NCBI GenBank assembly: GCA_964416505.1 | Contig: CAYQEJ010000001.1 | Span: 77,774 to 141,773, forward strand | Source of the DNA: an uncultured Gammaproteobacteria bacterium | Lineage (GTDB): Bacteria; Patescibacteriota; Microgenomatia; Levybacterales; UBA12049 | Direction of reading: 5' to 3' | Length of the DNA: 64,000 nt | Part shown: piece after piece, positions 826 through 53,096 of the stretch | How the letters are laid out: each line of letters starts with the position of its first letter | How positions within the stretch are numbered: position 1 is the first letter of the stretch | Notes under the pieces: generated by a model | Seen by the model: only the letters and a program-made list of their open reading frames with translations | Told to the model about the DNA's origin: nothing | The model's database searches: none | Made by a program: the position numbers and the translations under genes

Positions 826-1953
826 TTGAATAAGGTATTAAGATTTATTTCGTTGGCCTTTTTTATTTGCTCTTTTCTGGTAATGGCAAAAGTCATTCTT
901 AATCCCACATATCCAGATTTTACAAATTATTATTACGGTCCTAAATTAGCTTTTGAAGGAATTAGCCCATACTTACCAAACGAAAATCTTTTTACTCCCA
1001 CCACCTATCCTCCCACATTATTCCCAATTTTTAAATTTTTATCTTATTTAGATTTCATACTTGCAGGAAAGATTTGGACAATTGGATCTATATTTTCTCT
1101 TCTACTATCTTTAATTATTTTATTTAAAATTTATAAACAAAATCTTTTTTCAAATACAGTATTATTTATTTCGGGATTAACATTCCTTTCTTTTCCAATA
1201 AAGTTTAGCCTTGGAATGGGTCAAATAAATCTCTATATTCTTCTTTTAATAGTTTTATTCATTTATTTTCTAAATAAAGGTATGTCCAGAGCAGGAGCAT
1301 TTCTTTCTTTTGCCATAATCTTAAAGCTATTCCCTGTTTTTTTAATTCCCTATTTAGTTATTTTAAAAAAGTGGAAAATTTTACTGATAATCTTTTCTAT
1401 ATTTTTTACAATTTCAGTTATTACTTATTTGGTTTTGGGACGTGAAATTAATATTTATTATATTCAGAAAATAGCTCCAACTCTTATGGACTCCTGGAAG
1501 GGAAATTATTATAGTCAGTCATTATCAGGATTATTAACCCGCGAAATATCAGACCTGCGAGAAAGACAAATCCTAAAAAATATTATTTCCGCAGGAATGC
1601 TAGGGCTAACTTTTATTTTATTGGTTCTTAATAGGGACGTGAAGCGTGATGAGCTGATTTTAAAAATTTCTACTTTGATTAATTTAAATGTATTAATTAA
1701 TGGCTTTTCATGGCAACATCATTTTGTGTGGATGATTATTCCTTTAATTTCAACCTTCTTTTATATAAAAAATAAAAAACTTGGAATTTTTTACTTCGTT
1801 ATCCTTTTAGCATCATATATTTTAATTTCGTTTAACTTTAAAGATACAAATGGAATAAATTCTGTTTTACTCTCACATGTATTTTATGGAGGAGTAATTT
1901 TGTGGATTCTACAGTTACGCCTAATTTCGAAGGGGATTAAAAAAATTTTATAA
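826..1953 (+). CDS. Polytopic integral membrane protein, possibly GT-C/DUF2029-like glycosyltransferase
   Basis: 375-aa ORF with ~10 predicted hydrophobic helices, in the very F/I/L-rich composition typical of polyprenyl-phosphate-sugar-dependent GT-C enzymes. Start is TTG at 826; an ATG at 883 is an alternative. Confidence 0.45.
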   Translation: MNKVLRFISLAFFICSFLVMAKVILNPTYPDFTNYYYGPKLAFEGISPYLPNENLFTPTTYPPTLFPIFKFLSYLDFILAGKIWTIGSIFSLLLSLIILFKIYKQNLFSNTVLFISGLTFLSFPIKFSLGMGQINLYILLLIVLFIYFLNKGMSRAGAFLSFAIILKLFPVFLIPYLVILKKWKILLIIFSIFFTISVITYLVLGREINIYYIQKIAPTLMDSWKGNYYSQSLSGLLTREISDLRERQILKNIISAGMLGLTFILLVLNRDVKRDELILKISTLINLNVLINGFSWQHHFVWMIIPLISTFFYIKNKKLGIFYFVILLASYILISFNFKDTNGINSVLLSHVFYGGVILWILQLRLISKGIKKIL

Positions 1954-2394
1954 TTTTGGAATAATAACTTTTGTTCCTGGAGCTACATTATTTGCCTGTT
2001 CCTCAGTTAGGTTATTTGCTTTAGCTATATCTACCCATCTGTATCCGTCACCATAAAACTTAACTGCAACATCCCAAAGACCTTCACCTTCCCCAAGCGT
2101 ATATGTTTGGTTTGCTGGAGACACTATCTCTTCTGGAATACTCTTTTCATTAACTACCGGAGAATCGCTATCAATTGTTTGAACTCCTGATTCTTTAATA
2201 AATAGGAAAAATACCATGGAAATTCCTAGAACCACTACTGCACCGAGAACTAAAGAAATATATGATTCCCCTAGCTTTAGTTGTGAAGAAATATCATGAG
2301 CAAATTTGTTTGCACTGATTTTTAAATCATTTTTAGAAGCTACTGCTGCCTTTTTTGTAACTTTCTTAGTTGTCTTTTTTGTTTTCTTTGCCAT
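1948..2394 (-). CDS. LysM peptidoglycan-binding domain protein (K-rich N-terminus, single TM, C-terminal LysM)
   Basis: C-terminal segment YTLGEGEGLWDVAVKFYGDGYRWVDIAKANNL...VAPGTKVIIP matches the LysM consensus. The N-terminus is lysine-rich and followed by one hydrophobic helix. Confidence 0.7.
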   Translation of the reverse strand: MAKKTKKTTKKVTKKAAVASKNDLKISANKFAHDISSQLKLGESYISLVLGAVVVLGISMVFFLFIKESGVQTIDSDSPVVNEKSIPEEIVSPANQTYTLGEGEGLWDVAVKFYGDGYRWVDIAKANNLTEEQANNVAPGTKVIIPKL

Positions 2395-2483: not shown

Positions 2484-2561
2484 GGGGTGGTAGCTCAGTT
2501 TGGTTAGAGCGCTTCCCTGTCACGGAAGAGGTCGCGGGTTCGAGTCCCGTCCACCCCGCCA
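2484..2561 (+). tRNA. tRNA-Asp (anticodon GTC), CCA encoded
   Basis: Acceptor GGGGTGG/CCACCCC, D-arm GCTC-AGTTTGGTTA-GAGC, anticodon stem CTTCC/GGAAG with loop CTGTCAC (GTC), T-arm GCGGG-TTCGAGT-CCCGT, discriminator G plus CCA. Confidence 0.9.
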
Positions 2562-2583
2562 GATTAGATTAATCTTCTTAAAC

Positions 2584-4344
2584 GTGACCAATAAAGAAAT
2601 TGCCGAACTTTTCAGAAATGTTGCCGCTTCTTATTCAATAAAGAATGATGCTAAATTTAGATTTCAACTCCTTGCATATCAAAACGCAGCTGATGCAATC
2701 GAAGGATTATCTACTCAAGTAAGTGATTTTTACAAAGAAGGAAAACTTGATCAAATTCCGGGAATTGGCACTACTCTAAAACAAAGACTCGAGGAACTTT
2801 TAAAAACTGGAAAAGTAGTGCATTTCGAAGAAGTGATGAAAGGAATTCCAGAACCAGTTTTCTTACTTATGAAAGTGCCATCAATTGGCCCTAAGAAAGC
2901 ATACAAGCTAGCGACGGAGTTCAAGCTTAACAAAAATGAAACTGCGATCGAGAGCTTAAAAAAAGTTGGGGAAAAAGGAGAAATCGCAAAACTTGAAGGA
3001 TTTGGAGAAAAATCGGAAAAGGATATTCTTAGAGCTCTTGAAGAATATAAAAAAGGTTATGGCAAAACCACAAAAATGCTTCTTCCTTATGCAGGAGAAA
3101 TTGCTGAAGACATGATCAATTATCTTTTTCAAGATAAAAATGTAAAAGAAGCAATGCCACTTGGATCTTTAAGAAGAAGAAAACCACTTGTAGGAGACAT
3201 AGATATCGCAGTTGTCTCTAAGGATCCCGCAAATACTATTGATCATTTCACCAAATATCCTCGGGCTGGAAGAATAATTGAGAAAGGACCAAGCGGATCC
3301 TCACTTCTAACATCTGGAGGAGCACAAATAGATCTTTTAGTACTTGAGCCAGATCAATGGGGCTCTTTACTTCAGCATTTCACCGGCAGCAAAGACCACA
3401 ATGTACACCTAAGAGAACTCGCTTTAAAAAAAGGGCTTTCTTTAAATGAAAAAGGAATTAAAAATGTAAAAACAGAAAAACTTGAGAAATTCTCAAATGA
3501 AGAAGATTTTTATAAAAAAATAGGCATGGACTGGATACCTCCGGAAATGAGAGAAGACTCTGGGGAAATAGAACTTGCGCTCCTGCATAAATTACCAAAA
3601 ATAATTGAAGTTAAAGATATAAAAGGAGATTTTCATCTTCACTCAAGCTTTCCCGTAGAACAATCGCATGACCAGGGCCAAAGTTCAATTGAAGAAATGG
3701 TTTTATTTGCCAAGAAAATAGGCTATGAATATCTGGGATTTTCAGAACACAATCCTAGTCAATCCAAACACACAAAATCTCAAATCGTAAGTTTAATAAA
3801 AAAAAGAAATGAAGAAATAGACAGAGTTTCTAAGAAAAATAATTTTCCAATTTTTAAACTTATGGAAACAGATATCCTTCCGGATGGATCCTTGGCTCTT
3901 CCAGATGAAGCGCTCGATCAGCTTGATGGATCAATCGTTTCAATCCATAGTGTATTTAAAATGGATAAGGATGAAATGACAAAAAGAGTCATTAAGGGTC
4001 TTTCGCATCCGAAAGCTAAAATTCTCGCTCATCCCACTGGAAGACTTCTTAACGAAAGGTCTGGATATGAACTTGATTTCGAAACACTTTTTAAATTTTG
4101 CAAAGAAAACAATAAAGCTCTTGAAATTAACGCATATCCAAACAGGCTTGATCTAGAGGGGCCACTTATTAAGATGGCAATCGAATTTGAAATAAAACTG
4201 ACAATTGATACCGACTCACATCAGGTATCACAAATGAGTCTTATGCCTTATGGAGTATCTCAAGCAAGAAGAGGATGGGCAACAAAAAAAGATATACTAA
4301 ATTGCGCAAATTATGAAGATGTTGTAGAATGGTTTAAGAGCTAA
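2584..4344 (+). CDS. polX: DNA polymerase X family protein with C-terminal PHP (polymerase/histidinol phosphatase) domain
   Basis: Helix-hairpin-helix GIG motifs (QIPGIGTTL, VPSIGPKKA), Pol-beta-like catalytic aspartates (LVGDIDIAV), C-terminal PHP signature DFHLHS...EHNPS. The ORF-track start (2500) lies inside tRNA-Asp, so the start was moved to the in-frame GTG at 2584. Confidence 0.8.
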   Translation: MTNKEIAELFRNVAASYSIKNDAKFRFQLLAYQNAADAIEGLSTQVSDFYKEGKLDQIPGIGTTLKQRLEELLKTGKVVHFEEVMKGIPEPVFLLMKVPSIGPKKAYKLATEFKLNKNETAIESLKKVGEKGEIAKLEGFGEKSEKDILRALEEYKKGYGKTTKMLLPYAGEIAEDMINYLFQDKNVKEAMPLGSLRRRKPLVGDIDIAVVSKDPANTIDHFTKYPRAGRIIEKGPSGSSLLTSGGAQIDLLVLEPDQWGSLLQHFTGSKDHNVHLRELALKKGLSLNEKGIKNVKTEKLEKFSNEEDFYKKIGMDWIPPEMREDSGEIELALLHKLPKIIEVKDIKGDFHLHSSFPVEQSHDQGQSSIEEMVLFAKKIGYEYLGFSEHNPSQSKHTKSQIVSLIKKRNEEIDRVSKKNNFPIFKLMETDILPDGSLALPDEALDQLDGSIVSIHSVFKMDKDEMTKRVIKGLSHPKAKILAHPTGRLLNERSGYELDFETLFKFCKENNKALEINAYPNRLDLEGPLIKMAIEFEIKLTIDTDSHQVSQMSLMPYGVSQARRGWATKKDILNCANYEDVVEWFKS

Positions 4345-4345
4345 A

Positions 4346-4897
4346 ATGAATATAACAATTATTATCGCAGTCGCAGTAGGAGCATTAATTTTATTTGGTC
4401 TCTACCTTTACAATTCACTTATTTCTGCAAAACTAAGAGTCGGAGAAGCTTTTTCTCAAATTGATGTTCAATTAAAAAGAAGAACTGATCTCATCCCAAA
4501 TTTAGTTGAAACAGTAAAAGGATATGCAAAACAGGAAAAAGAAGTATTCACAAAAGTAACGGAACTTAGATCAAGCCTAATGCAAGCTAAATCTCCAGAA
4601 AAGAAAGCTGAAGTAAATAATCAGTTAACAGATGCTTTAAAATCAATTTTTGCTGTAGCTGAAGCATATCCACAACTTAGATCAAGCGAAAATTTTAAGG
4701 CTCTTCAGGATGAGTTATCAGATACAGAAAATAAAATTGCTTACTCCAGACAGTTCTACAATTCAAACGTATTAGATTACAATACAAAGCTTCAGGTTTT
4801 CCCAAATGTTTTATTTGCAAGAATTCTGAATTTTAAACCAGCAGAATTCTTTGGTGCTACTGAAGAGGAAAGAAAGACAGTTAAAGTTAGCTTCTAA
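4346..4897 (+). CDS. lemA: LemA family membrane protein
   Basis: N-terminal TM followed by the conserved LemA region (RVGEAFSQIDVQLKRRTDLIPNLVETVKGYAKQEKEVF...AEAYPQLRS). Followed by htpX, a pairing conserved in many bacteria. Confidence 0.8.
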   Translation: MNITIIIAVAVGALILFGLYLYNSLISAKLRVGEAFSQIDVQLKRRTDLIPNLVETVKGYAKQEKEVFTKVTELRSSLMQAKSPEKKAEVNNQLTDALKSIFAVAEAYPQLRSSENFKALQDELSDTENKIAYSRQFYNSNVLDYNTKLQVFPNVLFARILNFKPAEFFGATEEERKTVKVSF

Positions 4898-4901
4898 TTC
4901 T

Positions 4902-5789
4902 ATGAACATCTACGGTGCAATTTCCCAGAACAAGTGGAAAACTTGGATAATAATGACTCTTTTCATAGTCTTCATATCCACGCTTGTTTACGTAATGAGT
5001 AAAGCCTTTGGACTAAGCGCTCTTTCTATGACTGGAGTTGCTCTAATTATCGCAGGAGTAATGAGCATAGGAAGTTTTTACTACTCAGACAAATTGGTAA
5101 TAACTACTTCGGGAGCAAGACAGATTAAAAAAGACGAATTTCCTGAATATTTTCGAACTGTAGAAAATCTTGCTATTGCTGCAGGACTTCCTACGCCTAA
5201 AATCTACATTATCGATGATGCTTCTCCGAATGCATTTGCAACTGGAAGAGATCCAAAACATGCTGTAGTAGCAGCAACCACAGGATTACTTAATATAATG
5301 AACAAGGCAGAATTAGAAGGAGTTATCGCGCATGAGTTATCACACGTAAAAAACTACGATATTAGATTGGCTGGAGTAGTTGCTGTACTTGTAGGTTTTG
5401 TAGCAATATTATCTGATTTATTCATTCGCGCAAGTTTTTTTAGAGATTCAGATGATAACAAAGGTAACGCTATATTTTTAATCGTAGCGCTTGTCTTAGC
5501 AATCCTCTCTCCTATCGCTGCATCACTAATCCAGCTTGCAGTAAGTAGAAAAAGAGAGTATTTAGCAGATGCATCTGGCGCGCTTTTAACCAGATATCCG
5601 GAAGGTCTTGCTTCTGCTTTAGAAAAGCTTAAGAATGACCACACTCCACCTAGATCTGCAAGCAATGCAACAGCACATTTATTTATCGAGAATCCTTTTG
5701 ACAATAAAAAGGTAAAGAATCTTTTTACAGGACTTTTCAATACTCATCCCCCACTTGACGAAAGAATTAAGATACTTCGCTCCATGTAG
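4902..5789 (+). CDS. htpX: Zinc metalloprotease HtpX (peptidase M48)
   Basis: HEXXH zinc-binding motif HELSHVKNYD, 4 TM helices, C-terminal ...HPPLDERI typical of HtpX. The ATG at 4902 was chosen over the ORF-track start, which overlaps lemA. Confidence 0.85.
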   Translation: MNIYGAISQNKWKTWIIMTLFIVFISTLVYVMSKAFGLSALSMTGVALIIAGVMSIGSFYYSDKLVITTSGARQIKKDEFPEYFRTVENLAIAAGLPTPKIYIIDDASPNAFATGRDPKHAVVAATTGLLNIMNKAELEGVIAHELSHVKNYDIRLAGVVAVLVGFVAILSDLFIRASFFRDSDDNKGNAIFLIVALVLAILSPIAASLIQLAVSRKREYLADASGALLTRYPEGLASALEKLKNDHTPPRSASNATAHLFIENPFDNKKVKNLFTGLFNTHPPLDERIKILRSM

Positions 5790-5809: not shown

Positions 5810-7105
5810 GTGAATTTAATTCTTGTCATTTTAGGAAAACTTTTCATAACTACCTCACAAATTTTTAATCTTGGGAATGGCTCCACATGGCCGGGTCATA
5901 TAGCTTTAAGCACAAATCCAAAATTCATAAAAGAATCTTTAAAAAAAACAAAAACAAAAATTATTTTGGTCGCTGGTACTAATGGAAAAACCACTACAGG
6001 TGCTCTAATTTCACACATATTTCTTGGAAATAACAAATCAGTGATTCACAATTCCTCAGGAGCAAATCTTTTAAATGGATTAGCTTCAGCGATTATTTCA
6101 TCCTATAACATTAGCTTCGCAAGGCCAGGCCTTGCGAGGCTAGATGCAGATTATTTAGTATTTGAAGTTGATGAAAATGCACTTCCAAAAGTTTTAGAAA
6201 ATTTAACTCCAAATTACGTTATTTGCTTAAACCTTTTTAGAGACCAATTGGATAGATATGGAGAAATTGATTCGATATCAAGGAGATGGAAAGAAGCATT
6301 TAGAAAAATAGATGATAGGACAACGCTTATCTTAAACGCAGATGATCCACAAATCTCCTATCTTGGAAAAGATACAAATGCAAAAATAAAATATTTTGGA
6401 CTTGACGAAAAAGGAATTGATGTAACAAAACATGGTGCTGACTCTATTTACTGTCCCAAATGCTCTACCAAGTTAAACTACGAAAAAGTGTTTTATTCTC
6501 ACTTGGGAATTTGGAATTGTCCAAATTGCAAAATTAAAAGACCATCTCCTGAAAATATAGAAATTTCCTCAAATCCCCTTCCAGGAATTCATAACAAATA
6601 CAATCTTCAAGCGGCTATTACTGTCGCTCTTTCTGAAAACACAAGTCAAATCTTAATTAATGACGCATTAAATAAATTTACTCCAGCATTTGGAAGAGGC
6701 GAAAAGATTGTTTATAAAGGGAAAACGATTCAATTATTCTTATCAAAAAACCCAACAAGCTTTAATCAGAGTCTTGATACTATTAAGGATTTGGGTGGAA
6801 AAAACATTATGTTTATCTTAAACGACGCGATTCCCGATGGAAAAGATATAAGCTGGATTTGGGATATTAATCTGGAAGAAATCCTTACAAAGGACATGAA
6901 CATAGGTGTAACTGGTAACAGAATGCTGGATATGAGTCTAAGAATTAAATATAGTGAATTTTTTGCACATCATAATACGAATACACAAATCCTATTAGAC
7001 AATATGGTAAATTCTTTAGATTCAGACGAAACTCTTTATATTCTCCCAAACTACTCAGCAATGCTCGATATTAGAAAAATTCTAACAGGCAAAAAAATCT
7101 TATGA
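5810..7105 (+). CDS. murT: Lipid II isoglutaminyl synthase subunit MurT (Mur-ligase-like, with Cys4 zinc ribbon and DUF1727)
   Basis: Mur ligase P-loop VAGTNGKTTT. Cys4 ribbon CPKCSTKLNYEKVFYSHLGIWNCPNCKIKRP, equivalent to the S. aureus MurT ribbon. The stop overlaps the gatD start (ATGA). Contains an in-frame copy of the palindromic repeat at 6102-6143. Confidence 0.8.
   Translation: MNLILVILGKLFITTSQIFNLGNGSTWPGHIALSTNPKFIKESLKKTKTKIILVAGTNGKTTTGALISHIFLGNNKSVIHNSSGANLLNGLASAIISSYNISFARPGLARLDADYLVFEVDENALPKVLENLTPNYVICLNLFRDQLDRYGEIDSISRRWKEAFRKIDDRTTLILNADDPQISYLGKDTNAKIKYFGLDEKGIDVTKHGADSIYCPKCSTKLNYEKVFYSHLGIWNCPNCKIKRPSPENIEISSNPLPGIHNKYNLQAAITVALSENTSQILINDALNKFTPAFGRGEKIVYKGKTIQLFLSKNPTSFNQSLDTIKDLGGKNIMFILNDAIPDGKDISWIWDINLEEILTKDMNIGVTGNRMLDMSLRIKYSEFFAHHNTNTQILLDNMVNSLDSDETLYILPNYSAMLDIRKILTGKKIL
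6102..6143. repeat. Palindromic GC-rich repeat copy R1 (CCTATAACA-TTAGCTTCGCAAGGCCAGGCCTTGCGAGGCTAG), in-frame inside murT
   Basis: Near-perfect inverted repeat TAGCTTCGCAAGGCC-A-GGCCTTGCGAGGCTA read directly from the sequence. Encodes ...SYNISFARPGLARLDA..., about 10 aa more than staphylococcal MurT has in the equivalent loop. Confidence 0.8.
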
Positions 7106-7833
7106 AACAGAAATTGACAATTGGTTGGTTATATCCCGAGCTGATGAATATTTATGGTGACCGGGGAAATATCATAGCTTTAGTTAAACGCTCTACTTGG
7201 AGACAAATAAAAACTGAGGTAGAAAATTTAAATCCTGGTTTTTCAGATGATGCTTTAAGAAAATGCGACATTCTGATTATGGGAGGAGCTCAAGATAAGC
7301 AGCAGTCTATTGTTAACGAAGATCTTAAAAAGCATCATAAAACTCTCTCAGAAATGATAGATGAAGGAACTCCTGGACTTTTTGTATGCGGTGGATTCCA
7401 GTTTTTAGGAAACTATTATAAAGAAGCTGATGGTACGATTATCGATGGGCTTGGAATATTCGACCTTAACACCCAAAACCCTGGCCAAGAAAGCGGAAGA
7501 CTAATTGGAAATATAATAATTGAGCCTCTTGTTACTGGCCTTTCTAAACCTATTGTTGGGTTTGAAAATCATGGAGGAAGAACTGTACTTGGAGCAAACA
7601 TCAAACCATTTGGGAAAGTTTTAAAAGGTCATGGAAATAATGATGATGGTTTCGAAGGAGCTATTTATAAAAATAGCTTTGGAACATACATGCATGGTCC
7701 AATTTTACCAAAGAATCCTGAGCTTACTGATTTATTAATCAAACTTTCTCTTAAAGCAGAAGAGCTCCTACCACTTGATGATAAAATTGAGAATCAAGCA
7801 AATGAATTTATTCAAAAACTTTTGATTAAATAG
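7102..7833 (+). CDS. gatD: Lipid II isoglutaminyl synthase glutaminase subunit GatD (CobB/CobQ-type glutamine amidotransferase)
   Basis: N-terminus LTIGWLYPELMNIYGDRGN and catalytic Cys in VCGGFQFLG, plus MHGP near the C-terminus, are the GatD/CobQ-GATase signature. Translationally coupled to murT. Confidence 0.8.
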   Translation: MKQKLTIGWLYPELMNIYGDRGNIIALVKRSTWRQIKTEVENLNPGFSDDALRKCDILIMGGAQDKQQSIVNEDLKKHHKTLSEMIDEGTPGLFVCGGFQFLGNYYKEADGTIIDGLGIFDLNTQNPGQESGRLIGNIIIEPLVTGLSKPIVGFENHGGRTVLGANIKPFGKVLKGHGNNDDGFEGAIYKNSFGTYMHGPILPKNPELTDLLIKLSLKAEELLPLDDKIENQANEFIQKLLIK

Positions 7834-7871
7834 AGATTGAATAGCCTCGAGACATAGAATATAATTACCTC

Positions 7872-8156
7872 ATGAAGTTTGATATAAAACACGTAGCCAA
7901 ATTGGCAAATCTCTCTCTTTCAGACGAAGAAGAAAAAAAATTCTCCGCTCAACTTGAAGAAACAGTAAGCTACATTGAGGGATTGAATGAAGTAGATACA
8001 AATGGTGTCTCCCCTACATCACAGGTTACAGGACTTGAAAATATAACCCGTGAAGACGAAGTTACTCAATCACTTTCTCAAGAAGAAGCACTTTCAAATG
8101 CCAAGTCTACCCATAATGGGTTTTTCAGAGTTAAAGGAATATTAAATAATGAATAA
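7872..8156 (+). CDS. gatC: Asp/Glu-tRNA(Asn/Gln) amidotransferase subunit C
   Basis: 94-aa protein. MKFDIKHVAKLANLSLSDEEEKKFSAQLEETVSYIEGLNEVDTNGVSPTSQV matches the GatC family. Confidence 0.8.
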   Translation: MKFDIKHVAKLANLSLSDEEEKKFSAQLEETVSYIEGLNEVDTNGVSPTSQVTGLENITREDEVTQSLSQEEALSNAKSTHNGFFRVKGILNNE

Positions 8157-8766
8157 CCTTACCACATTTTACCTTGTAAGGCATGGTGAAACCGAAGACA
8201 ACGTTAATCACATAATTCAAGGTCAAACAGACTCCCCTCTTACGGAAAATGGGATTGAGGAAATAAAAAAAGTTGCGAAAAAACTTAAAGGAGTAAAATT
8301 TGATCTAGCTTTTTCTTCAGATCTTTTGAGAGCTAAAAGGACTGCAGAAATAATTGCTTTAGAGCACAAACTGGAAGTTACAACATCAGAAATAATAAGG
8401 GAAAGAAACTTTGGAGAGTTTGAAAAGAGACCCAATACTGAATATGCAGAAAAAGTAAATTCCTTACTAGATAAACTCTCAGATGAAGAGAGACGATCAT
8501 TTGATAAATTTGGCATGGAAAGCGAAAATAGTTTAGTAGAAAGATTAACTACTTTTATTAGAGAAGTTGCCGTCGCAAATCCTGGAAAAAAAGTATTAGT
8601 CGTAGCACACGGCGCCATAATAAGATATTTCTTAATCAGATTAGGAGTCGGCGATTATAAAACATTTAGAGGATCGAGCATCAAAAACGTGGGATTTGTA
8701 AAAATTGAATCTGACGGAACTGATTTTTTTGTAAAAGAATTAAGCGGAATACAATTCGTGAATTAA
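8149..8766 (+). CDS. Histidine phosphatase family protein (phosphoglycerate mutase-like)
   Basis: N-terminal catalytic RHG motif (YLVRHGETEDN) and AHGAIIRYF near the C-terminus. Overlaps the gatC stop by 8 nt and lies inside the gatC-A-B operon. Confidence 0.75.
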   Translation: MNNLTTFYLVRHGETEDNVNHIIQGQTDSPLTENGIEEIKKVAKKLKGVKFDLAFSSDLLRAKRTAEIIALEHKLEVTTSEIIRERNFGEFEKRPNTEYAEKVNSLLDKLSDEERRSFDKFGMESENSLVERLTTFIREVAVANPGKKVLVVAHGAIIRYFLIRLGVGDYKTFRGSSIKNVGFVKIESDGTDFFVKELSGIQFVN

Positions 8767-8767
8767 T

Positions 8768-10201
8768 ATGCTAAATAAACTTACCATAAAGAAAGCACAA
8801 GAAGGACTTAAAAATAAAGATTTTTCCTCAGTTGAGCTCGTAAAAGCTTGTTTCGATCAAATTAAAAAGACGAACAATAAATTAAATGTTTTTATTACTC
8901 TTACTGAAGAAGAAGCACTGAAATCTGCAAAAGAAGCCGATAGTGAGATAGCCTCGCAAGGCCAGGCCTTGGAGGCTAGGCCTTTATTGGGAATCCCTAT
9001 TGCGCTAAAAGATATGTTTAATGCAAAAGGAATAAAAACTACTGCCGGATCAAATGTTCTAAGTGATTATTTTTCCTCATATGATTCCACAGTAGTAAAA
9101 AAGCTGAAAGACGCAGGTGCTGTTATAATCGGAAAAACCAATCAGGATGCCTGGGCTCATGGATCAAGCGGAGAAAATTCAGACTTCAAACCTACTAAGA
9201 ATCCATGGAATTTAGACTATGTACCAGGTGGCTCAAGTAGCGGATCAGCTGCTGCTGTTGCATCAAATATGTCTCTCGCTTCTACTGGAACAGATACAGG
9301 AGGCTCAATTAGGCTCCCTGCAAGCTTTACAAATACCGTAGGTTTAAAACCGACGTATGGAAGAGTCTCTAGGTATGGAATAGTAGCAATGGCATCATCT
9401 CATGATTCAATTGGACATTTTACAAAAACTGTCGAAGACTCAGCGATATTTCTTGAAGCTACTGCTGGCCATGATCCACATGACGCCACAACTTCATCAA
9501 AACAAGTTCCGAATTACACAAAATCTTTAAGCAAGGAAGTTAAAGGAATGAAAATAGGATTTCATTCAGATTTTTTTGACAAAGATATAGACAAAGAGAT
9601 TGGCGAAAATTATAAGGAAACTGTGGAAAAACTTAAAGAATTAGGCGCTGAAATGGTGGATTTGCCTTCCATTTATTCAAATAATTTTGTATCAGCATAT
9701 TACATAATTCAACCTGCAGAAGTATCCTCAAACCTTGCAAGATATGACGGAATTAGGTTTGGATTATCTAGACAGAATTTTGGAGAAGAAGCAAAAAGAA
9801 GAATAATGCTTGGGACTTACGTTCTTTCATCAGGATATTATGATCAATATTATAATAAGGCTTCAAAAATCCGATCCAAACTTATAAACGATTTAGGTAA
9901 AGAATATTTTGAAAAGGTTTCAGCTGTTGTTGTCCCGACTTCTCCCACTCCTCCATGGAAGCTCGGAGAAAAAACAGATGATCCTTTAAAGATGTATCTT
10001 TCAGATGTTTTCACTGTCATAGCAAATCTGGCAGGAATTCCTGGCCTCTCAGTCCCGACTGGATTTATGAAAAATAACTTACCAATTGGCATGCAAATCC
10101 TTGGTCCACAGTTCTCTGAAGAAACACTTTTCCAAATTGGATACAACCTTGAACAGGCAACACAAAATGAAGAATGGAGAAAAAAGGAGCCAGAGCTATG
10201 A
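8768..10201 (+). CDS. gatA: Glu-tRNA(Gln)/Asp-tRNA(Asn) amidotransferase subunit A (amidase signature family)
   Basis: Amidase signature [13 protein letters not shown], Ser-cisSer-Lys catalytic context, full-length 477 aa. Contains an in-frame copy of the palindromic repeat at 8948-8982. Confidence 0.9.
8948..8982. repeat. Palindromic GC-rich repeat copy R2 (ATAGCCTCGCAAGGCCAGGCCTTGGAGGCTAGGCC), in-frame inside gatA
   Basis: Same core CGCAAGGCCAGGCCTTG with inverted arms AGCCTC/GAGGCT. Encodes [11 protein letters not shown] in a variable N-terminal segment of GatA. GC-rich island in AT-rich coding context. Confidence 0.75.
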
Positions 10202-11517
10202 AATATACACCAGTTATCGGGCTTGAAGTACATGTTGAACTAAAAACAAAATCCAAAATGTTTTGCGGTTGTTCCGCTGATTACTTTGGACAAAAACCAA
10301 ACACCCACACATGTCCTGTATGTCTTGGTCTTCCAGGTGCGCTTCCTGTACCAAATAAAAAAGCCATAGAATGGTGCATTATGATTGGACTTGCGTTAGG
10401 TTGCGAGATCAACAAATTTTCTAAATTCGACAGAAAAAATTATTTTTACCCAGACTTATCAAAAGGTTACCAAATTTCCCAATATGATCTGCCTTTTGCC
10501 ATTAACGGCGAAATGAAGCTATCCAGTGGAAAAATAGTAAAAATCAGACGTGTTCACATGGAAGAAGATACAGGAAAACTTTCGCACGAAACAATAGATG
10601 GCGAAAAAGTTTCCCTGATTGACTTTAACAGATCTGGAGTTCCTTTAGTTGAGATAGTTACTGAACCTGACTTCGATAATCCTGAAGACGTAAAAGAATA
10701 CCTTCAGCGTCTTCAGCAAATAGTTAGATATTTAGAAGTTTCAGATGCAGACATGGAAAAAGGAAATATGAGGCTCGAGCCAAATATTTCCCTAAGGAAA
10801 GATGGACAAACTGATTTACCACCATATAAAGTTGAGGTTAAAAATATTAATTCTTTCAATTTTGTAGTTAAAGCTATCGAATCGGAAGTCAAAAGACAAT
10901 CTGAAATTCTAGATAAAGGAGAAATACCAGCACAAGAAACCAGAGGATATGTTGAAGCAACTTCTTCTACAGTCTCACAAAGATCTAAAGAGGACGCACA
11001 GGATTATAGATATTTCCCTGATCCTGATATTCCTCCAATTAGACTTAGCGATGAAAACATTGAAACATTAAAATGCGAAATGCCTGAACTACCGGATGAA
11101 AAAATAAAAAGATTTATGGAAGTTTATGCATTAAGTGAATATGATGCTCAAATCTTAACCAAAGACAAACTAACAGCTGAATTCTTCGACAAATCAGCAA
11201 ATTTGGCACAAGAACAAAACATGAAGAGAAAAGAATTAGCAAATTATATTATTAATAAAAAGCCAGATTTAAATAAAATTTCACCCGAAGAGCTTCTAAA
11301 GATAGTTAGCGCAGCAAATAAGATTTCTGATATTGATGAAGATAAATTGAATGAAATAATTGATAAAGTTTTAGGTGAAAATGCTAAAGCTGTTGAGGAC
11401 TTCAAATCAGGAAAAGAAACAGTTATAATGTTTTTAGTAGGCGCTGTAATGCGTCAGTTCCCTGAAAAAATAGACGCAGGGAAAGTCAAGGCGAGTTTAC
11501 TCGCGAAATTAAAATAA
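10198..11517 (+). CDS. gatB: Glu-tRNA(Gln)/Asp-tRNA(Asn) amidotransferase subunit B
   Basis: [26 protein letters not shown]-terminus is diagnostic. ATG at 10198 is preceded by AAGGAG and overlaps the gatA stop (ATGA). Confidence 0.9.
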
Positions 11518-11518
11518 T

Positions 11519-12358
11519 ATGCCAGACGGATCACCTGCTCCAACAGAAACAAAACCACCACAGAGTGAAACACAACCTATAGATCCAGCCCCAAAAGCTG
11601 AAGTTCCCAGAGTTGTGACCCCATTGAGCCAGATGCCAGAAGGAACCACCATTCCAAAAAAAACAAAAGTTCAGAAAGCAAAGCTTCAAGAGTCAAGAGC
11701 AAAACTTGAGGAAGCACAAAGATTATCTATGTATGATCAAGTAACTGGTCTTCACAACAATCGTTGGTTTGAAGAAAGGGTAGGAAATGCTATAAAAGCC
11801 TCTGAGAGAAGCGGAAAAGGTTTTTATGTTATGTTTATGGATCTAGATAAATTTAAAGATTACAATTCAAGATATGCCCATGCTGGCGGAGACAAAATCT
11901 TAAGACTTTTAAGAAGCATAAGAACAAGACCAGGAGAAGATATCGCTAGATATGGAGGAGATGAATTCGCTCAGGTTTTAAACGACGATATTTCACTAGA
12001 AGAAGCTGTAAAGGTGTCGTTAAGAAATTCAAATACTGTGGAAAGTGAAAGTAGAAATGTTATCCCCCAGATGGCAATTGTAAACGCTGATACAGCCCCT
12101 ATAGATCACGTAACCATGTCTTTAGGATTATTGGAATGTAATAGTCAAATGACATATGAACAAATCAAAGAAAGAGCCAGCGCTACAATGCTTGCAGGAA
12201 AAAACAGTGGTAGAGATTTAATTACAGTTTCAACATTGGATGGGAAAACAAAGATGTTCACAAGGGATGGAAAGGAATATATTCCGCCTGAACAACGAGG
12301 AAAACTTTATAGATTAATCGCCCCAGTTCAAAGATTATTAGGAAGAAAGGCAGCATAA
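11519..12358 (+). CDS. GGDEF-domain protein (putative diguanylate cyclase) with Pro/Thr/Glu-rich N-terminal tail
   Basis: GGDEF active-site motif RYGGDEFAQV, upstream DQVTGLHNNRWF and FMDLDKFKDYN substrate/metal-binding elements. No TM segments. Confidence 0.7.
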   Translation: MPDGSPAPTETKPPQSETQPIDPAPKAEVPRVVTPLSQMPEGTTIPKKTKVQKAKLQESRAKLEEAQRLSMYDQVTGLHNNRWFEERVGNAIKASERSGKGFYVMFMDLDKFKDYNSRYAHAGGDKILRLLRSIRTRPGEDIARYGGDEFAQVLNDDISLEEAVKVSLRNSNTVESESRNVIPQMAIVNADTAPIDHVTMSLGLLECNSQMTYEQIKERASATMLAGKNSGRDLITVSTLDGKTKMFTRDGKEYIPPEQRGKLYRLIAPVQRLLGRKAA

Positions 12359-15300
12359 TGGCAGATTTCGTACACCTTCACAATCATTCTGAATATTCTC
12401 TTTTAGATGGCCTCTCAAAAAACGTAGAAATGGTAGCTCAAGCAAAGAGCTTAGGAATGAAAGCTCTAGCGATAACTGATCACGGGAATTTATATGGAGC
12501 TATAAAGTTTTATAAGGCATGCAAGGAAGCAGGAATAAAACCAATAATAGGCTGCGAAATATATATGGCCAAGCGCACAAGACACGACAAAGAAGCTGGT
12601 AAGGATTCTGATTCAAATCATTTAATTTTGCTTGCTAAAAATGACACTGGCTACAAGAATCTTATGAAAATCATATCAGTTGCTCATTTAGAAGGATATT
12701 ATTACAAACCTCGCGCAGATATTGATCTACTTAGAGAAAATAGCGAGGGTTTGATTTGTCTAAGCGCATGCGTAAATGGATATATTTCTGAGCCCCTACT
12801 CAACAATCAGAATGAAACAGCGGAAAAAAGAGCCATGGAGCTTTCAGAAATATTCGGAAAAGATGGCTTCTATCTTGAGATTCAGAAACATTTAAATGTA
12901 AAAGATCAAGACGAATTAAATCCAAAACTCATCGAACTTTCACAAAAATTAGGTATCCCCCTTGTTGCTACAAATGACAATCACTATGTAAAAAACGGCG
13001 ATGCAGAAGCTCAAGAAGTTTTACTATGTATACAAACACAATCTACTCTAACTACTCCAAATAGAAAACTTTCAATGATTGACTCTCCTGATTTTTACAT
13101 GAAGTCACCAGAAGAAATGACAGGTCTTTTTATACAAACTCCTGAAGCAGTGGAAAACAGTGTAAAAATTGCAGAAATGTGCGATTTAGAAATTCAGCTT
13201 GGAAAATGGATCATGCCTATTTTTGATGTGCCCGATAAATCCTCTTCTGGAGATTATCTTACAAAATTGGTTTATGAAGGTTTGGAAAGAAGATATGGAA
13301 AAATAACTGATGAAATCAAACAAAGAGCAGATTATGAACTTTCTATTATTCTAAAAAAGAAATATGAAACATACTTTCTCATCGTTGCCGATTTTGTAAA
13401 TTGGGCAAAATCTCATGGTATTAGCGTTGGTCCTGGAAGAGGGTCAGCTGCTGGCTCCGTGGTTTCATTTGCTCTAAGCATAACCGATATTGACCCTTTC
13501 TTCTTTAATCTTCCTTTCGAAAGATTTTTAAACCCTGATAGACCATCTGCTCCTGATATAGATCTTGATTTTGCAGATACTAGACGAGACGAAGTAATTG
13601 AATATGTGACTCAAAAATATGGAAAAGATAAAGTTGCACAAATCATCACTTTTGGAACAATGGAAGCAAGAGGTTCAGTTAGAGATACAGGAAGAGTTAT
13701 GGGTCTTCCATATTCCGCTCCTGATAGAATCTCAAAAATGATTCCACCTGGCTGGCAGGGACACGCTATGACCTTGGATAACGCACTTGAGCAAAGCCCT
13801 GAGCTAAAAATGGCATATACTACAGAAGCCGAGACCAAAAGACTCTTGGATTTAGCCAAAAGAGTTGAAGGCGTAGCCAGACATGCTTCAGTTCATGCTG
13901 CAGGAGTAGTTATAGCTGACAAACCGATCACGCAATATACTCCCCTTCAAAAAGAAAGTAATGGAGACAAAATTATTACTCAGTATGATATGTATACTGT
14001 TGGTGAAGACGGAGTTGGACTTTTAAAAATGGACTTCTTGGGTCTTAGAAATCTGACAATTATCGAAGAGACTCTAAATTTTATAAAAACCAATAGAAAT
14101 GTAGAGATAGATCTTTCAACTCTTCCAGTAGATGATAAAAAAACTTATGATCTTTTATCCGATGCAGAAACCACAGGAATATTTCAACTTGAATCCGCAG
14201 GCATGAGAAGGTATATAAAAGATCTAAAACCTACTTCAATTTTTGATCTTATGGCAATGGTTGCTTTATATCGACCAGGTCCAATGGCCAATATTCCCGA
14301 ATTCATTGAAAGGAAAAGAGACTCATCAAAAATCTCCCTTCCCGACCCAAGACTAAAAGATGCATTAGCACAATCCTATGGAATGCTTGTGTATCAAGAT
14401 GATGTTTTGCTCACAACAATTGCTATAGCTGGATATACCTGGCTAGATGCTGATAAATTCCGCAAGGCGATGGGTAAAAAAATTCCGGCAGAAATGAAAA
14501 AACAAAAAGAACAATTTATCAAAGGCTCGATCGCCAACGGCTTACCCAAGAAAAAAGCAGAAGATATTTATAATCTGATTGCTCCATTTGCAGGATATGG
14601 ATTTAATAAAGCTCATGCAGCGTGCTACGCGACAATTGCATATAGAACTGGGTATCTAAAGGCTAACTACCCAGTTGAGTTCATGACTGCTCTTCTAACA
14701 GCAGAGTCTCGCGGTACAACTGGCCCAGTTAAAAATGAGAAAATTGCACAAGCTATTGCAGAATGTAAAAGATTAAAACTTGTTGTTCTTCCACCAGACA
14801 TAAATAAATCTGGAAAAGATTTTACGATTGAGGAAGGAGAAAAAATCAGATTCGGTCTTTCAGCTATAAAAAATGTCGGTGAAGCAGCCATCAAGAATAT
14901 AATCGAAAACAGAAATAAAGGCGAATTCAAAAGCTTTGAAGATTTTTGCAGACGCGTAGATCTTTCAACTATAAATAAAAAAACTATCGAAAGTCTTATA
15001 AAGGCAGGAGGAATGGATATTTTTGGGAATAGAGCACATCTTCTTTCAATTTATGCAAACATAGTTGAAAATATTCATAAATCAAAAAAAAGCACACTTG
15101 AAGGACAAACAAGCTTATTTGGAGAAGCAGAACCCGAAAAAGAAATTCAAAAAATGACTTCTACTGTAGAAGATTTTTCTTCTCATGAAAAATTGGCGTT
15201 TGAAAAAGAATTTCTGGGCTTTTATTTAACATCTCATCCGCAAATGAACAATTTACTGGCACTCCGATCTATAGTTAGCCACGATATTGCAGTTCTAGAA

Positions 15301-15579
15301 GAAGAAAAAGAAGGTAAATTTGTAACTGTGGGAGGAATCATTGAAACTATGAGAAAAATATTCACTAAAAAAACCGGTGCTGAGATGGCTTTTATAACTA
15401 TAGCGGATGAAAAAGGTGTGACAATCGAAATTGTAGTCTTCCCAAAAATTTATGAACGCTCTAAATCACTTCTGGCAACAGACGGACTTGTTATAGTTGA
15501 GGGGAAAATTGATACCAAAAATGATCGCCCAGTAATCCTAGCTGAAAAAATCTCAACCCTAAAGTATTCACCATCTTGA
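12358..15579 (+). CDS. dnaE: DNA polymerase III alpha subunit
   Basis: N-terminal PHP domain FVHLHNHSEYSLLDG, polymerase core motifs (GPGRGSAAGS, NKAHAACYA) and C-terminal OB fold. 1073 aa. Confidence 0.95.
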   Translation: MADFVHLHNHSEYSLLDGLSKNVEMVAQAKSLGMKALAITDHGNLYGAIKFYKACKEAGIKPIIGCEIYMAKRTRHDKEAGKDSDSNHLILLAKNDTGYKNLMKIISVAHLEGYYYKPRADIDLLRENSEGLICLSACVNGYISEPLLNNQNETAEKRAMELSEIFGKDGFYLEIQKHLNVKDQDELNPKLIELSQKLGIPLVATNDNHYVKNGDAEAQEVLLCIQTQSTLTTPNRKLSMIDSPDFYMKSPEEMTGLFIQTPEAVENSVKIAEMCDLEIQLGKWIMPIFDVPDKSSSGDYLTKLVYEGLERRYGKITDEIKQRADYELSIILKKKYETYFLIVADFVNWAKSHGISVGPGRGSAAGSVVSFALSITDIDPFFFNLPFERFLNPDRPSAPDIDLDFADTRRDEVIEYVTQKYGKDKVAQIITFGTMEARGSVRDTGRVMGLPYSAPDRISKMIPPGWQGHAMTLDNALEQSPELKMAYTTEAETKRLLDLAKRVEGVARHASVHAAGVVIADKPITQYTPLQKESNGDKIITQYDMYTVGEDGVGLLKMDFLGLRNLTIIEETLNFIKTNRNVEIDLSTLPVDDKKTYDLLSDAETTGIFQLESAGMRRYIKDLKPTSIFDLMAMVALYRPGPMANIPEFIERKRDSSKISLPDPRLKDALAQSYGMLVYQDDVLLTTIAIAGYTWLDADKFRKAMGKKIPAEMKKQKEQFIKGSIANGLPKKKAEDIYNLIAPFAGYGFNKAHAACYATIAYRTGYLKANYPVEFMTALLTAESRGTTGPVKNEKIAQAIAECKRLKLVVLPPDINKSGKDFTIEEGEKIRFGLSAIKNVGEAAIKNIIENRNKGEFKSFEDFCRRVDLSTINKKTIESLIKAGGMDIFGNRAHLLSIYANIVENIHKSKKSTLEGQTSLFGEAEPEKEIQKMTSTVEDFSSHEKLAFEKEFLGFYLTSHPQMNNLLALRSIVSHDIAVLEEEKEGKFVTVGGIIETMRKIFTKKTGAEMAFITIADEKGVTIEIVVFPKIYERSKSLLATDGLVIVEGKIDTKNDRPVILAEKISTLKYSPS

Positions 15580-19060: not shown

Positions 19061-21305
<2,245 letters not shown>

Positions 21306-21724: not shown

Positions 21725-21760
21725 CCTATAACTTTAGCCTCCCAAGGCCAGGCCTTTTCT
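21725..21760. repeat. Palindromic repeat copy R3 (CCTATAACTTTAGCCTCCCAAGGCCAGGCCTT followed by a T-run), intergenic 3' of atpC
   Basis: Shares CCTATAAC and TTAGCCTC.CAAGGCCAGGCCTT with the other copies. The right arm is replaced by TTTTCT, giving a hairpin plus U-tract. Confidence 0.75.
21725..21760 (+). terminator. Putative intrinsic terminator of the atp operon, formed by repeat R3
   Basis: Stem CCCAAGG/CCTT(GG) around loop CCAGG, immediately followed by TTTTCT, 2 nt after the atpC stop. Confidence 0.35.
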
Positions 21761-21775
21761 GACTCTTTCAATAAA

Positions 21776-23465: not shown

Positions 23466-23516
23466 CCTATAACATTAGCTTCGCAAGGCCTGGCCTTGCG
23501 AAGCTAGGACTATAAG
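23466..23516. repeat. Palindromic repeat copy R4 (CCTATAACATTAGCTTCGCAAGGCCTGGCCTTGCGAAGCTAGGACTATAAG), intergenic
   Basis: Longest copy. Inverted arms TAGCTTCGCAAGGCC / GGCCTTGCGAAGCTA extend to outer TATAAC/…TATAAG ends. Lies upstream of the 548-aa minus-strand ORF, so R3 and R4 bracket that gene. Confidence 0.8.
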
Positions 23517-26213: not shown

Positions 26214-26238
26214 CCTCGCAAGGCCAGGCCTTATGAGC
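26210..26238. repeat. Palindromic repeat copy R5 (TTAGCCTCGCAAGGCCAGGCCTTATGAGCG), overlapping the stop codon of the GT4 gene
   Basis: The TAG of the TTAGCCTC arm (26211-26213) is the stop codon of CDS 25044-26213. The right arm is degenerate. Confidence 0.7.
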
Positions 26239-26280
26239 GTAAATAACTATGAAGTCGGGTCTATTAAACTCTCCTCTAAT

Positions 26281-26324: not shown

Positions 26325-26399
26325 GCCGAAGTAACTCAGGGGTAGAGTAGCTCTTTCGTAAAGAGCAAGTCGTGAGTCCGAATCTCACCTTCGGCTCCA
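26325..26399 (+). tRNA. tRNA-Thr (anticodon CGT), CCA encoded
   Basis: Acceptor GCCGAAG/CTTCGGC, D-arm CTCA-GGGGTAG-AGTAG, anticodon stem GCTCT/AGAGC with loop TTCGTAA (CGT), T-arm CGTGA-GTCCGAA-TCTCAC, discriminator T plus CCA. Confidence 0.9.
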
Positions 26400-53016: not shown

Positions 53017-53022
53017 ATTAAG

Positions 53023-53096
53023 TGGACTTGAGAGGATTCGAACCTCTGACCTTTTCAATGTGAATGAAACGCTCTAACCAGCTGAGCTACAAATCC
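53023..53096 (-). tRNA. tRNA-Val (anticodon CAC)
   Basis: Reverse complement: acceptor GGATTTG/CAAGTCC, D-arm GCTC-AGCTGGTTA-GAGC, anticodon stem TTTCA/TGAAA with loop TTCACAT (CAC), T-arm AGAGG-TTCGAAT-CCTCT. No CCA encoded. Confidence 0.85.

Follow-up and report, generated by a model that had tools for sequence, protein, structure and literature searches.

Gene content of the murT-gatCAB locus

The locus described here lies in a 64-kb stretch of DNA (the window, which throughout means the whole of the DNA that was analysed) from a bacterium of the lineage Patescibacteria group, Microgenomates group, Candidatus Levyibacteriota. On the plus strand of the window, the genes murT and gatD, which resemble those of the MurT/GatD lipid II isoglutaminyl synthase, are directly followed by gatC, a histidine phosphatase gene, gatA and gatB (Table 1), and both murT and gatA carry a short palindrome inside their reading frame. 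These six open reading frames (ORFs) had already been delimited in a first-pass annotation, and the ORF table gave the same coordinates for all of them. From lemA (4346) to the end of dnaE (15579), every gene is read in the plus direction, with spacings of at most 38 nucleotides (nt) or small overlaps, and a promoter and terminator scan found no terminator-like site on the plus strand between 5810 and 15688. The overlap between murT and gatD amounts to 4 nt, ATGA, in which the ATG of gatD occupies 7102-7104 and the TGA of murT 7103-7105. Such an overlap is typical of translational coupling, and the ATGA at 7102-7105 bears out the coupling that had been claimed for this pair. The products of gatC, gatA and gatB all exceed the NCBIfam equivalog cut-offs, which places the three of them in GatCAB.

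The 38-nt gap between gatD and gatC contains a promoter-like sequence, TTGAAT-17-TATAAT (7837-7865), whose −10 element ends 6 nt before the ATG of gatC. A leaderless gatC transcript is conceivable from such a site, although the scan overall was not above chance. It returned 42 promoter-like sites against 43.6 expected from shuffled sequence, and because this is no better than shuffled sequence the site in the gap was not relied on.

The placement of the genome in the candidate phyla radiation (CPR), proposed earlier from the DNA, is confirmed by the named close homologues of MurT (53-62% identity), all of which belong to Candidatus Levybacteria or the Patescibacteria group. Several related loci (L002-L005, L013, L015, L025, L052, L054 and L066) are filed as 'uncultured Gammaproteobacteria bacterium' and display Levybacteria-type synteny, with MurT proteins 39-59% identical to that of the window. 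The Gammaproteobacteria name on those metagenome-assembled genomes looks like a placeholder or a wrong taxonomy.

Identity of MurT and GatD

The identity of the pair as MurT and GatD is well supported by comparisons of profiles, sequences and a predicted structure. MurT matched the Pfam family MurT_C (DUF1727/PF08353) over the whole profile (1-110 of 110; residues 311-418) with 92.3 bits, the cut-off being 25, and Mur_ligase_M with 70.9 bits. Its N-terminus is short and lacks the Mur N-domain, and the P-loop stands as far from the N-terminus as K59 does in Staphylococcus aureus. GatD matched GATase_3, a family of CobB/CobQ type, with 123 bits, as expected from its earlier description as a CobQ-type glutaminase. 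Among NCBIfam models, the MurT equivalogs came out on top (NF045635 / NF052464; 215 and 210 bits), about 130 bits clear of other families, the runners-up being pMurC (87 bits), MurC (66), MurE (63) and cyanophycin synthetase, CphA (43). The GatD equivalogs were likewise the best models for GatD (NF052463 / NF045636; 206 and 181 bits), with CobQ next at 44.

Comparison with PDB sequences gave the same picture. MurT aligned over its full length with the proteins of Streptococcus pneumoniae (6fqb, 1e-53), S. aureus (6gs2/7q8e, ~2e-51) and Streptococcus pyogenes (9sq9, 1e-46). It reached 186 bits with MurT sequences versus 36 bits with other proteins, cyanophycin synthase and MurC being at 1e-8 or worse, and the match of GatD to S. 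aureus GatD (5n9m/6gs2) was at 5e-51. An AlphaFold2 model of MurT, built from a 57-sequence alignment, had a mean predicted local distance difference test score (pLDDT) of 88.9 and a predicted template modelling score (pTM) of 0.89. When this model was compared with the PDB by Foldseek, the best 13 hits were MurT chains of MurT/GatD complexes (E values 1e-32 to 1e-24), followed by pMurC (6vr7) at 6e-21 and then by MurF and cyanophycin synthetase at ~1e-17. The profile searches that had been proposed for MurT thus uphold its assignment. A grouping with cyanophycin synthetase or MurE-like ligases had been named as the alternative; MurT scores far above both and does not group with them, and that identity was rejected on the NCBIfam, PDB-sequence and Foldseek scores.

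The closest relatives of the pair outside the CPR are uncharacterised homologues in Cyanobacteria (Nostoc, Microcystis, Synechocystis and others) and in Chloroflexota and Actinomycetota, with 38-43% MurT identity. In these groups the genes are not linked to gatCAB, and murT and gatD are often 0.1-2 kb apart, or gatD is not found at the locus. The Cys tetrad in the MurT of Cyanobacteria and Chloroflexi has been noted before (Morlot 2018). A neighbour-joining tree, computed without support values, joined Microgenomates and cyanobacterial MurT in one clade and left the proteins of Chloroflexota, Actinomycetota, Dormibacterota, S. aureus and S. pneumoniae outside it. In the same unsupported tree, cyanobacterial MurT (L016-L050, L064, L075) adjoin Gottesmanbacteria-like ones (L014, L027, L066). 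The clustering of Microgenomates and cyanobacterial MurT could reflect an old transfer or shared ancestry. The archaeal pMurC and MurT/GatD of pseudomurein methanogens share the Mur-domain family, and pMurC is next best both in NCBIfam (87 bits) and by fold (6vr7). In contrast to bacterial MurT, pMurC scores much lower, has a full N-terminal domain and has no role as a GatD partner.

Conservation of catalytic and binding residues

The MurT residues that had been mutated or singled out by Morlot et al. (2018) and Noeldeke et al. (2018) were mapped through the printed alignments, and their conservation was checked in alignments of 14 and 57 Microgenomates sequences (Table 1). The P-loop, GTNGKT (G56-T57-N58-G59-K60-T61), is invariant in both alignments, as are all the other listed residues save N262 and N265, which are conserved in at least 90% of the sequences. 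In the 57-sequence alignment, N338, D339, P342, D343, G344 and D346 are invariant as well. The last of these corresponds to the Asp (D349 in S. aureus, D355 in S. pneumoniae) that completes the catalytic triad of GatD from across the subunit interface (Noeldeke et al., 2018). The zinc ribbon with four cysteines (Cys4) that had been read from the DNA is present as the invariant tetrad C215/C218/C237/C240; the ribbon occurs in most MurT, not in all.

The conservation of GatD was assessed in 69 sequences from CPR, Cyanobacteria, Chloroflexota, Actinomycetota, Dormibacterota and Bacillota. The catalytic Cys and His, whose presence had been set as a check on GatD, were both found: C96 corresponds to C94 of S. 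aureus, and H198-G199-P200, the HGP motif, to H189-G190-P191. Y18, D20, G61-G62, C96, Q100 and R133 are invariant in all 69 proteins, and H198 is present in 68.

Proposed function and rival acceptors

The closest known systems are the MurT/GatD complexes of S. aureus, S. pneumoniae and S. pyogenes, and Mycobacterium tuberculosis (6gs2, 6h5e, 7q8e, 6fqb, 9sq9). The pair of the window has in common with them the arrangement as two translationally coupled genes, a MurT with a truncated N-terminus, a GTNGKT Mur-ligase central domain, a Cys4 zinc ribbon and MurT_C, and a GatD whose Cys-His pair has HGP instead of HPE and whose triad is completed by an Asp of MurT. It differs from them in that its MurT has a loop insertion of 6-7 residues, derived from the palindromic repeat, after helix 88-98, in that gatCAB follows downstream, and in its host, an uncultured CPR bacterium known here from its genes.

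Amidation of D-iso-glutamate (D-iso-Glu) in lipid II by a MurT/GatD complex was judged the likeliest function of the pair, and a highly probable one. The mechanism was modelled on the enzymes of S. aureus and S. pneumoniae, from the conserved residues and the structures. GatD would hydrolyse glutamine through Cys96/His198, with Asp346 of MurT reaching across the subunit interface to complete the triad. MurT would bind ATP through K60/T61 of the P-loop and the Mg ligands E119/D121/E122, and would activate D-iso-Glu, which stands at position 2 in the stem peptide of lipid II, at its alpha-carboxyl. Ammonia derived from GatD would then turn the activated D-iso-Glu into D-iso-glutamine (D-iso-Gln). 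The amidated lipid II would subsequently be polymerised and cross-linked, and the window has genes for a RodA-like polymerase and an L,D-transpeptidase. The reading preferred here, to which a probability of about 0.82 was given, is that murT-gatD encodes a MurT/GatD lipid II isoglutaminyl synthase, that its adjacency to gatCAB is inherited and that the palindromes are tolerated loop insertions.

Peptidoglycan genes had been expected elsewhere in the genome. The same 64-kb window holds a RodA-like SEDS gene and a gene for a YkuD-family L,D-transpeptidase, so peptidoglycan genes are not absent from this genome, and a LysM protein with a weak match is also encoded. The RodA-like gene is, at the level of gene content, evidence for the synthesis of peptidoglycan from lipid II in this bacterium. 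In a complete Microgenomates genome, peptidoglycan biosynthesis has been described as essentially complete, 'like other CPR organisms' (PMC7143001).

Several points weigh against the preferred reading. Both proteins fall below the NCBIfam equivalog cut-offs and so outside formal membership (215 and 210 bits versus 800 for MurT; 206 versus 450 and 181 versus 400 for GatD), and their identity to the characterised enzymes is just 28-30%. The NCBIfam MurT equivalog models are narrow, and the scores below the cut-offs are consistent with the cautious names that NCBI gives to MurT homologues ('MurT ligase domain-containing', 'Mur ligase family protein', 'DUF1727 domain-containing'); the JGI label on several homologues is 'lipid II isoglutaminyl synthase (glutamine-hydrolysing)'. 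The DNAAD motif of S. aureus, for which a contact to the lysine of the stem peptide has been proposed (Noeldeke et al., 2018), has a different counterpart in the MurT of the window, N-D-A-I-P-D-G-K-D versus L-N-D-N-A-A-D-G-R-D in S. aureus, so that details of the acceptor (for example Lys-type or diaminopimelate-type lipid II) may differ. In addition, no MurT/GatD of the CPR has been biochemically characterised, and for the rest of the Mur pathway (murA-F, mraY, murG and the penicillin-binding proteins) the view of this genome is limited to 64 kb.

The low identity, the scores under the cut-offs and the altered lysine-contact segment could also indicate a MurT/GatD-like amidotransferase with another acceptor, in which case amidation of D-iso-Glu in lipid II would not follow. 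The candidates would be a UDP-MurNAc-peptide in soluble form, a different carboxylate within the stem peptide, or an envelope polymer other than peptidoglycan that the many glycosyltransferases of this genome produce, and the large glycosylation island in the window, as well as the separation of the CPR and cyanobacterial clade from the characterised Bacillota enzymes in the simple tree, would fit such a role. However, the residues for ATP, Mg, the acceptor carboxylate (N86, equivalent to N85 of S. pneumoniae) and the inter-subunit triad are all kept, and no homologue of the MurT/GatD family is known to have a different substrate. According to the literature, the distant MurT/GatD of Staphylococcus, Streptococcus and Mycobacterium all amidate D-iso-Glu. 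A different acceptor was accordingly regarded as improbable, and lipid II remains the preferred substrate.

Gene order across Microgenomates

The distribution of the arrangement was analysed in 80 loci from a scan of species-representative genomes and in three closer relatives (L082-L084), the gene order being read by tblastn with the proteins of the window together with precomputed Pfam tables. The order PolX-LemA-HtpX-MurT-GatD-GatC-(HisPhos)-GatA-GatB-(GGDEF)-DnaE was found in 22 of the 23 Microgenomates-type loci whose sequence reached far enough downstream (L002-L015, L025, L044, L052, L054, L066 and L082-L084), and it holds down to 39% MurT identity. On the other hand, not one of about 57 loci from Cyanobacteria, Chloroflexota, Actinomycetota, Dormibacterota and Bacillota had gatCAB near murT-gatD. 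The neighbourhood that the first-pass annotation had pointed out, murT-gatD beside gatC-[histidine phosphatase]-gatA-gatB, is therefore real and its synteny specific to a lineage, because the block is present in nearly all informative Microgenomates loci and in none of those from outside the CPR.

The great majority of the 83 related loci have murT paired with gatD, and the distance between gatD and gatC varies from 24 nt to 2.5 kb. In L083 (11293-18293), an unannotated ORF of 248 amino acids and an APH kinase gene separate murT from gatD, and NUDIX, two His_Phos and DUF5680 genes are interspersed in the gat cluster. A histidine phosphatase occurs in the gat block of only L008, L011 and L082-L084 among the relatives, and the gene at 8149-8766 is a variable passenger. 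More generally, the block from murT to gatB was seen to take in small passengers repeatedly while its order is kept, namely histidine phosphatase (1-2 copies), NUDIX, APH kinase and DUF5680 genes. In L017 (Candidatus Microgenomates; 10001-15263), LemA-HtpX-MurT-GatD is followed directly by DnaE, and the 21-kb locus contains no gatCAB.

The constancy of the adjacency in Microgenomates, down to such a low MurT identity, and the co-directional genes with tiny gaps and no terminator-like site among them would be compatible with a functional link, in which the two amidation systems form one operon co-regulated by the supply of glutamine or nitrogen. Nevertheless, conservation is equally strong all the way from PolX to DnaE, which indicates that the adjacency is not specific to the two amidation systems. 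Both the gatD-gatC and the murT-gatD intervals have repeatedly received unrelated genes (APH, NUDIX and DUF5680 in L083), with gaps of up to 2.5 kb, L017 retains murT-gatD-dnaE with no gatCAB at the locus, and the linkage is missing from all of the about 57 loci of the other phyla. The promoter-like site in the gatD-gatC gap, which would divide such an operon, comes from a scan that was not above chance. A functional operon was thus considered unlikely, and from the comparison of gene orders it was concluded that the adjacency of murT-gatD and gatCAB is an inherited, lineage-specific gene order of Microgenomates; the comparison gave no evidence that the two systems are coupled in function.

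Palindromes inside murT and gatA

The in-frame palindromic repeats that had been reported in murT and gatA were recovered as 31-nt copies at 6112-6142 and 8949-8979. They belong to a set of five sites in the window (Table 1), at which the 17-nt core of the palindrome gave 9 strand-matches against a chance expectation of 0.04. The RNA of the murT copy is predicted to fold with −25.6 kcal/mol (z −6.1), and the perfect copies in general with about −25 kcal/mol (z about −6). The murT copy and the gatA copy are translated in different frames, and the third frame contains a TAG.

In MurT, the segment encoded by the palindrome is an insertion that lengthens the common form of the protein by 4-10 residues and is present in 22 of 120 homologues. 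In the AlphaFold2 model it forms a loop (block 101-110, pLDDT ~62) between helix 88-98 and strand 115-120. When the insertion was mapped on a neighbour-joining tree of the 120 homologues, computed without support values, 12 parsimony changes were needed, which corresponds to repeated insertion or repeated loss. In GatA, the palindrome adds a net of 4 residues compared with homologues, shortly before the GIPIALKD motif, and among the aligned loci this insertion is confined to the window, L082 and L084.

The presence of a 31-nt repeat within each coding sequence raises the possibility that murT, gatA or both are relics, inactivated after insertion of a mobile palindrome. Yet both reading frames are open and of full length, and the catalytic residues are intact. 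Relatives whose MurT is 60-71% identical have retained the MurT insert at this site, in addition to its presence among the 120 homologues, and it forms a low-confidence loop between secondary-structure elements of an otherwise confident model. Furthermore, the same element is found inside PheT, ValS, TsaD and other essential genes. Inactivation was for these reasons held to be extremely improbable. Pseudogenisation of murT or gatA by the repeat was rejected on the open frames, the insert in 22 of 120 homologues and its loop position in the model. The best explanation of the murT and gatA palindromes is that they are tolerated loop insertions of a repeat resembling the repetitive extragenic palindromes (REPs) that are associated with a Y1_Tnp transposase (REP-associated tyrosine transposase, RAYT).

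A palindrome family associated with a RAYT-like gene

The palindrome at the murT site is also present in L082 (4342), L083 (10313) and L084 (10319), and that at the gatA site in L082 (7179) and L084 (13225). In L084, the copies in murT and gatA have the same variant stem, CCTTCCAAGGCCTGGCCTTGGAAGG, which is two base pairs off that of the window, changed on both sides: in both copies C7-G25 has become T-A and G8-C24 has become C-G. This shared compensatory variant suggests, from the pattern of the changes, either homogenisation of the copies (concerted evolution) or selection on the hairpin. No true copies of the palindrome core were found in the 80 GTDB-representative loci (MurT identity at most 59%); the palindrome was met in the closer relatives L082-L084 and in metagenomes.

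An exact 23-mer of the palindrome occurs in at least 120 metagenome contigs, mostly from groundwater and sediment samples. The repeat counts given here all refer to the matches listed (120 contigs, L085-L204, with 143 copies). Among them, 59 of the 143 copies (41%) lie within ORFs of at least 120 amino acids, which belong to 32 host protein clusters. The intragenic copies use the same two stop-free frames only, and the resulting peptides read x-F-A-R-P-G-L-A-K/R-L or L-A-S-Q-G-Q/L-A-L-R/Q-x. For five of the hosts the identity was checked and upheld with Pfam (PheT, ValS, a LepA-like GTPase, a P-type ATPase and TsaD), and the essential genes that host the palindrome comprise murT, gatA, pheT, valS, tsaD and the gene of the lepA-like GTPase.

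A link with a transposase emerged from L084, in which a Y1_Tnp gene (PF01797, RAYT-like; 20083-20727) adjoins dnaE. The assignment to PF01797 was made on this gene, which then served as the query for homologues. These were found in 21 of the 120 listed contigs, and in at least 10 of those loci palindromes lie about 15-80 nt from the Y1_Tnp gene on both sides (L098, L117, L125, L132, L134, L141, L156, L161, L197 and L204). In several loci the Y1_Tnp gene itself was seen to carry an in-frame copy of the palindrome. The 64-kb window itself yielded no Y1_Tnp gene, and the flanking of Y1_Tnp by palindromes is a REP/RAYT arrangement met in related loci, not within the window.

Like REPs with their RAYT, the element is a short GC-rich hairpin in many copies that flanks a single Y1_Tnp gene on both sides. 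Classical REPs are extragenic, whereas 41% of the 143 listed copies of this palindrome are intragenic, so that in location the element departs from the REP definition. In residing in frame inside housekeeping genes and adding a short peptide, it is similar to the Rickettsia palindromic elements (RPEs). RPEs are about 100-150 bp long and are found in Rickettsia, whereas the present element has 31 nt and is found in the CPR. RPEs are not known to have a transposase partner. The balance tips slightly towards the view that the murT and gatA palindromes belong to a RAYT-associated REP family that extends through Levybacteria, is routinely intragenic with essential genes among its hosts, and has its hairpin kept, with paired base changes, at orthologous sites across species. 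If so, the family would be a CPR counterpart of the RPEs, but with an identifiable transposase partner, and it would imply that the RAYT continues to homogenise or re-insert the copies, or else that a DNA or RNA hairpin within genes is under selection. A search of the accessible literature found nothing relevant on palindromic elements or RAYTs in Patescibacteria.

Other features of the window

The GGDEF-domain protein encoded at 11519-12358 has an intact GGDEF motif, and a similar gene occupies the same place, between gatB and dnaE, in several relatives. The mechanical ORF of the PolX-like gene (2500-4344) begins within a tRNA-Asp (2484-2561), and the products of the relatives have 586 amino acids; the real start is probably about 28 codons downstream of that of the mechanical ORF. 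Between about 28000 and 53000, the GC content drops to 25-30%, compared with about 35% elsewhere. This stretch, bordered by tRNA-Thr (26325-26399) and tRNA-Val (53022-53096), encodes GT2 and GT4 glycosyltransferases, PMT_2-type membrane transferases, a Wzy_C ligase, a flippase, a carbamoyltransferase, methyltransferases and an epimerase, and is probably a glycan or envelope-polysaccharide island.

Table 1. Genes and palindromes of the window, and functional residues of MurT with their equivalents in S. pneumoniae (Spn) and S. aureus (Sau).
Feature	Position	Strand	Details
LysM protein, weak match	1948-2394	-	peptidoglycan-related
lemA and htpX (M48 peptidase)	4346-5789	+	upstream part of the conserved syntenic block
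murT	5810-7105	+	GTG start, 431 amino acids; ORF table
gatD	7102-7833	+	243 amino acids; ORF table
gatC, Asp/Glu-tRNA amidotransferase subunit C	7872-8156	+	TIGR00135 87 bits (cut-off 47); Pfam GatC
Histidine phosphatase (branch 1), 205 amino acids	8149-8766	+	His_Phos_1 163 bits; between gatC and gatA
gatA, amidase subunit	8768-10201	+	TIGR00132 539 bits (cut-off 481); Pfam Amidase
gatB	10174-11517	+	NF004012 542 bits (cut-off 338); Pfam GatB_N/GatB_Yqey
GGDEF-domain gene and dnaE	11519-15579	+	downstream part of the conserved syntenic block
RodA-like SEDS peptidoglycan polymerase	55258-56334	-	FTSW_RODA_SPOVE 291 bits; TIGR02210 330, just under cut-off 336.7
YkuD-family L,D-transpeptidase	60889-61338	-	PF03734 77 bits
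Palindrome, 31 nt, perfect stem (REP-like), TAGCTTCGCAAGGCCAGGCCTTGCGAGGCTA	6112-6142		in frame in murT; encodes S-F-A-R-P-G-L-A-R-L
Palindrome, near-identical copy	8949-8979		in frame in gatA; reading frame other than that of the murT copy
Palindrome, degenerate copy	~21735-21765		
Palindrome, perfect copy	23476-23506		intergenic
Palindrome copy	26211-26241		TAG at its 5' end (26211-26213) doubles as stop codon for the GT4 gene (25044-26213)
MurT P-loop	K60/T61		Spn K59, T60
MurT acceptor-carboxylate loop	G84-A85-N86		N86 = Spn N85
MurT Mg ligands	E119, D121, E122		Spn E110, D112/E113
MurT conserved loop	R144-E152		Spn 135-143
MurT Cys4 zinc ribbon, central domain	C215/C218/C237/C240		aligns with the Spn/Sau tetrad; invariant
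MurT adenine contacts	N262/N265		Spn N270/N273
MurT hinge	G295-R296		Spn G303-R304
MurT C-domain loop	K313-N314-P315		Spn K321-N322-P323
MurT third member of the inter-subunit triad	D346		Sau D349 / Spn D355

Significance of the findings

In a pangenomic survey of 2025, the list of lineages with MurT was confined to Bacillota, Actinomycetota, Caldisericum, Thermobaculum and pseudomurein archaea (some methanogens), and the range of MurT/GatD had been extended to Cyanobacteria and Chloroflexi (Morlot 2018). No literature was found that ties MurT/GatD or peptidoglycan amidation to the CPR. The murT-gatD pair beside gatCAB widens the reported taxonomic range of a known enzyme that automated annotation has already caught. 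As the JGI labels already read lipid II isoglutaminyl synthase, it is an annotation-level result, a taxonomic extension. The in-frame palindromes associated with a RAYT are the more unusual feature.

The D-iso-Gln modification has been described as needed for efficient cross-linking in Staphylococcus, Streptococcus and Mycobacterium. By homology, the Levybacteria lineage would have amidated peptidoglycan. Should the enzyme act in the way known from Gram-positive bacteria, the peptidoglycan of Levybacteria and other Microgenomates would contain D-iso-glutamine, a concrete point open to testing in the Gram-positive-like envelope that has been inferred for the CPR. The repeat family, in turn, could raise the question of how the essential coding sequences of ultra-small genomes come to be colonised by a REP/RAYT system.

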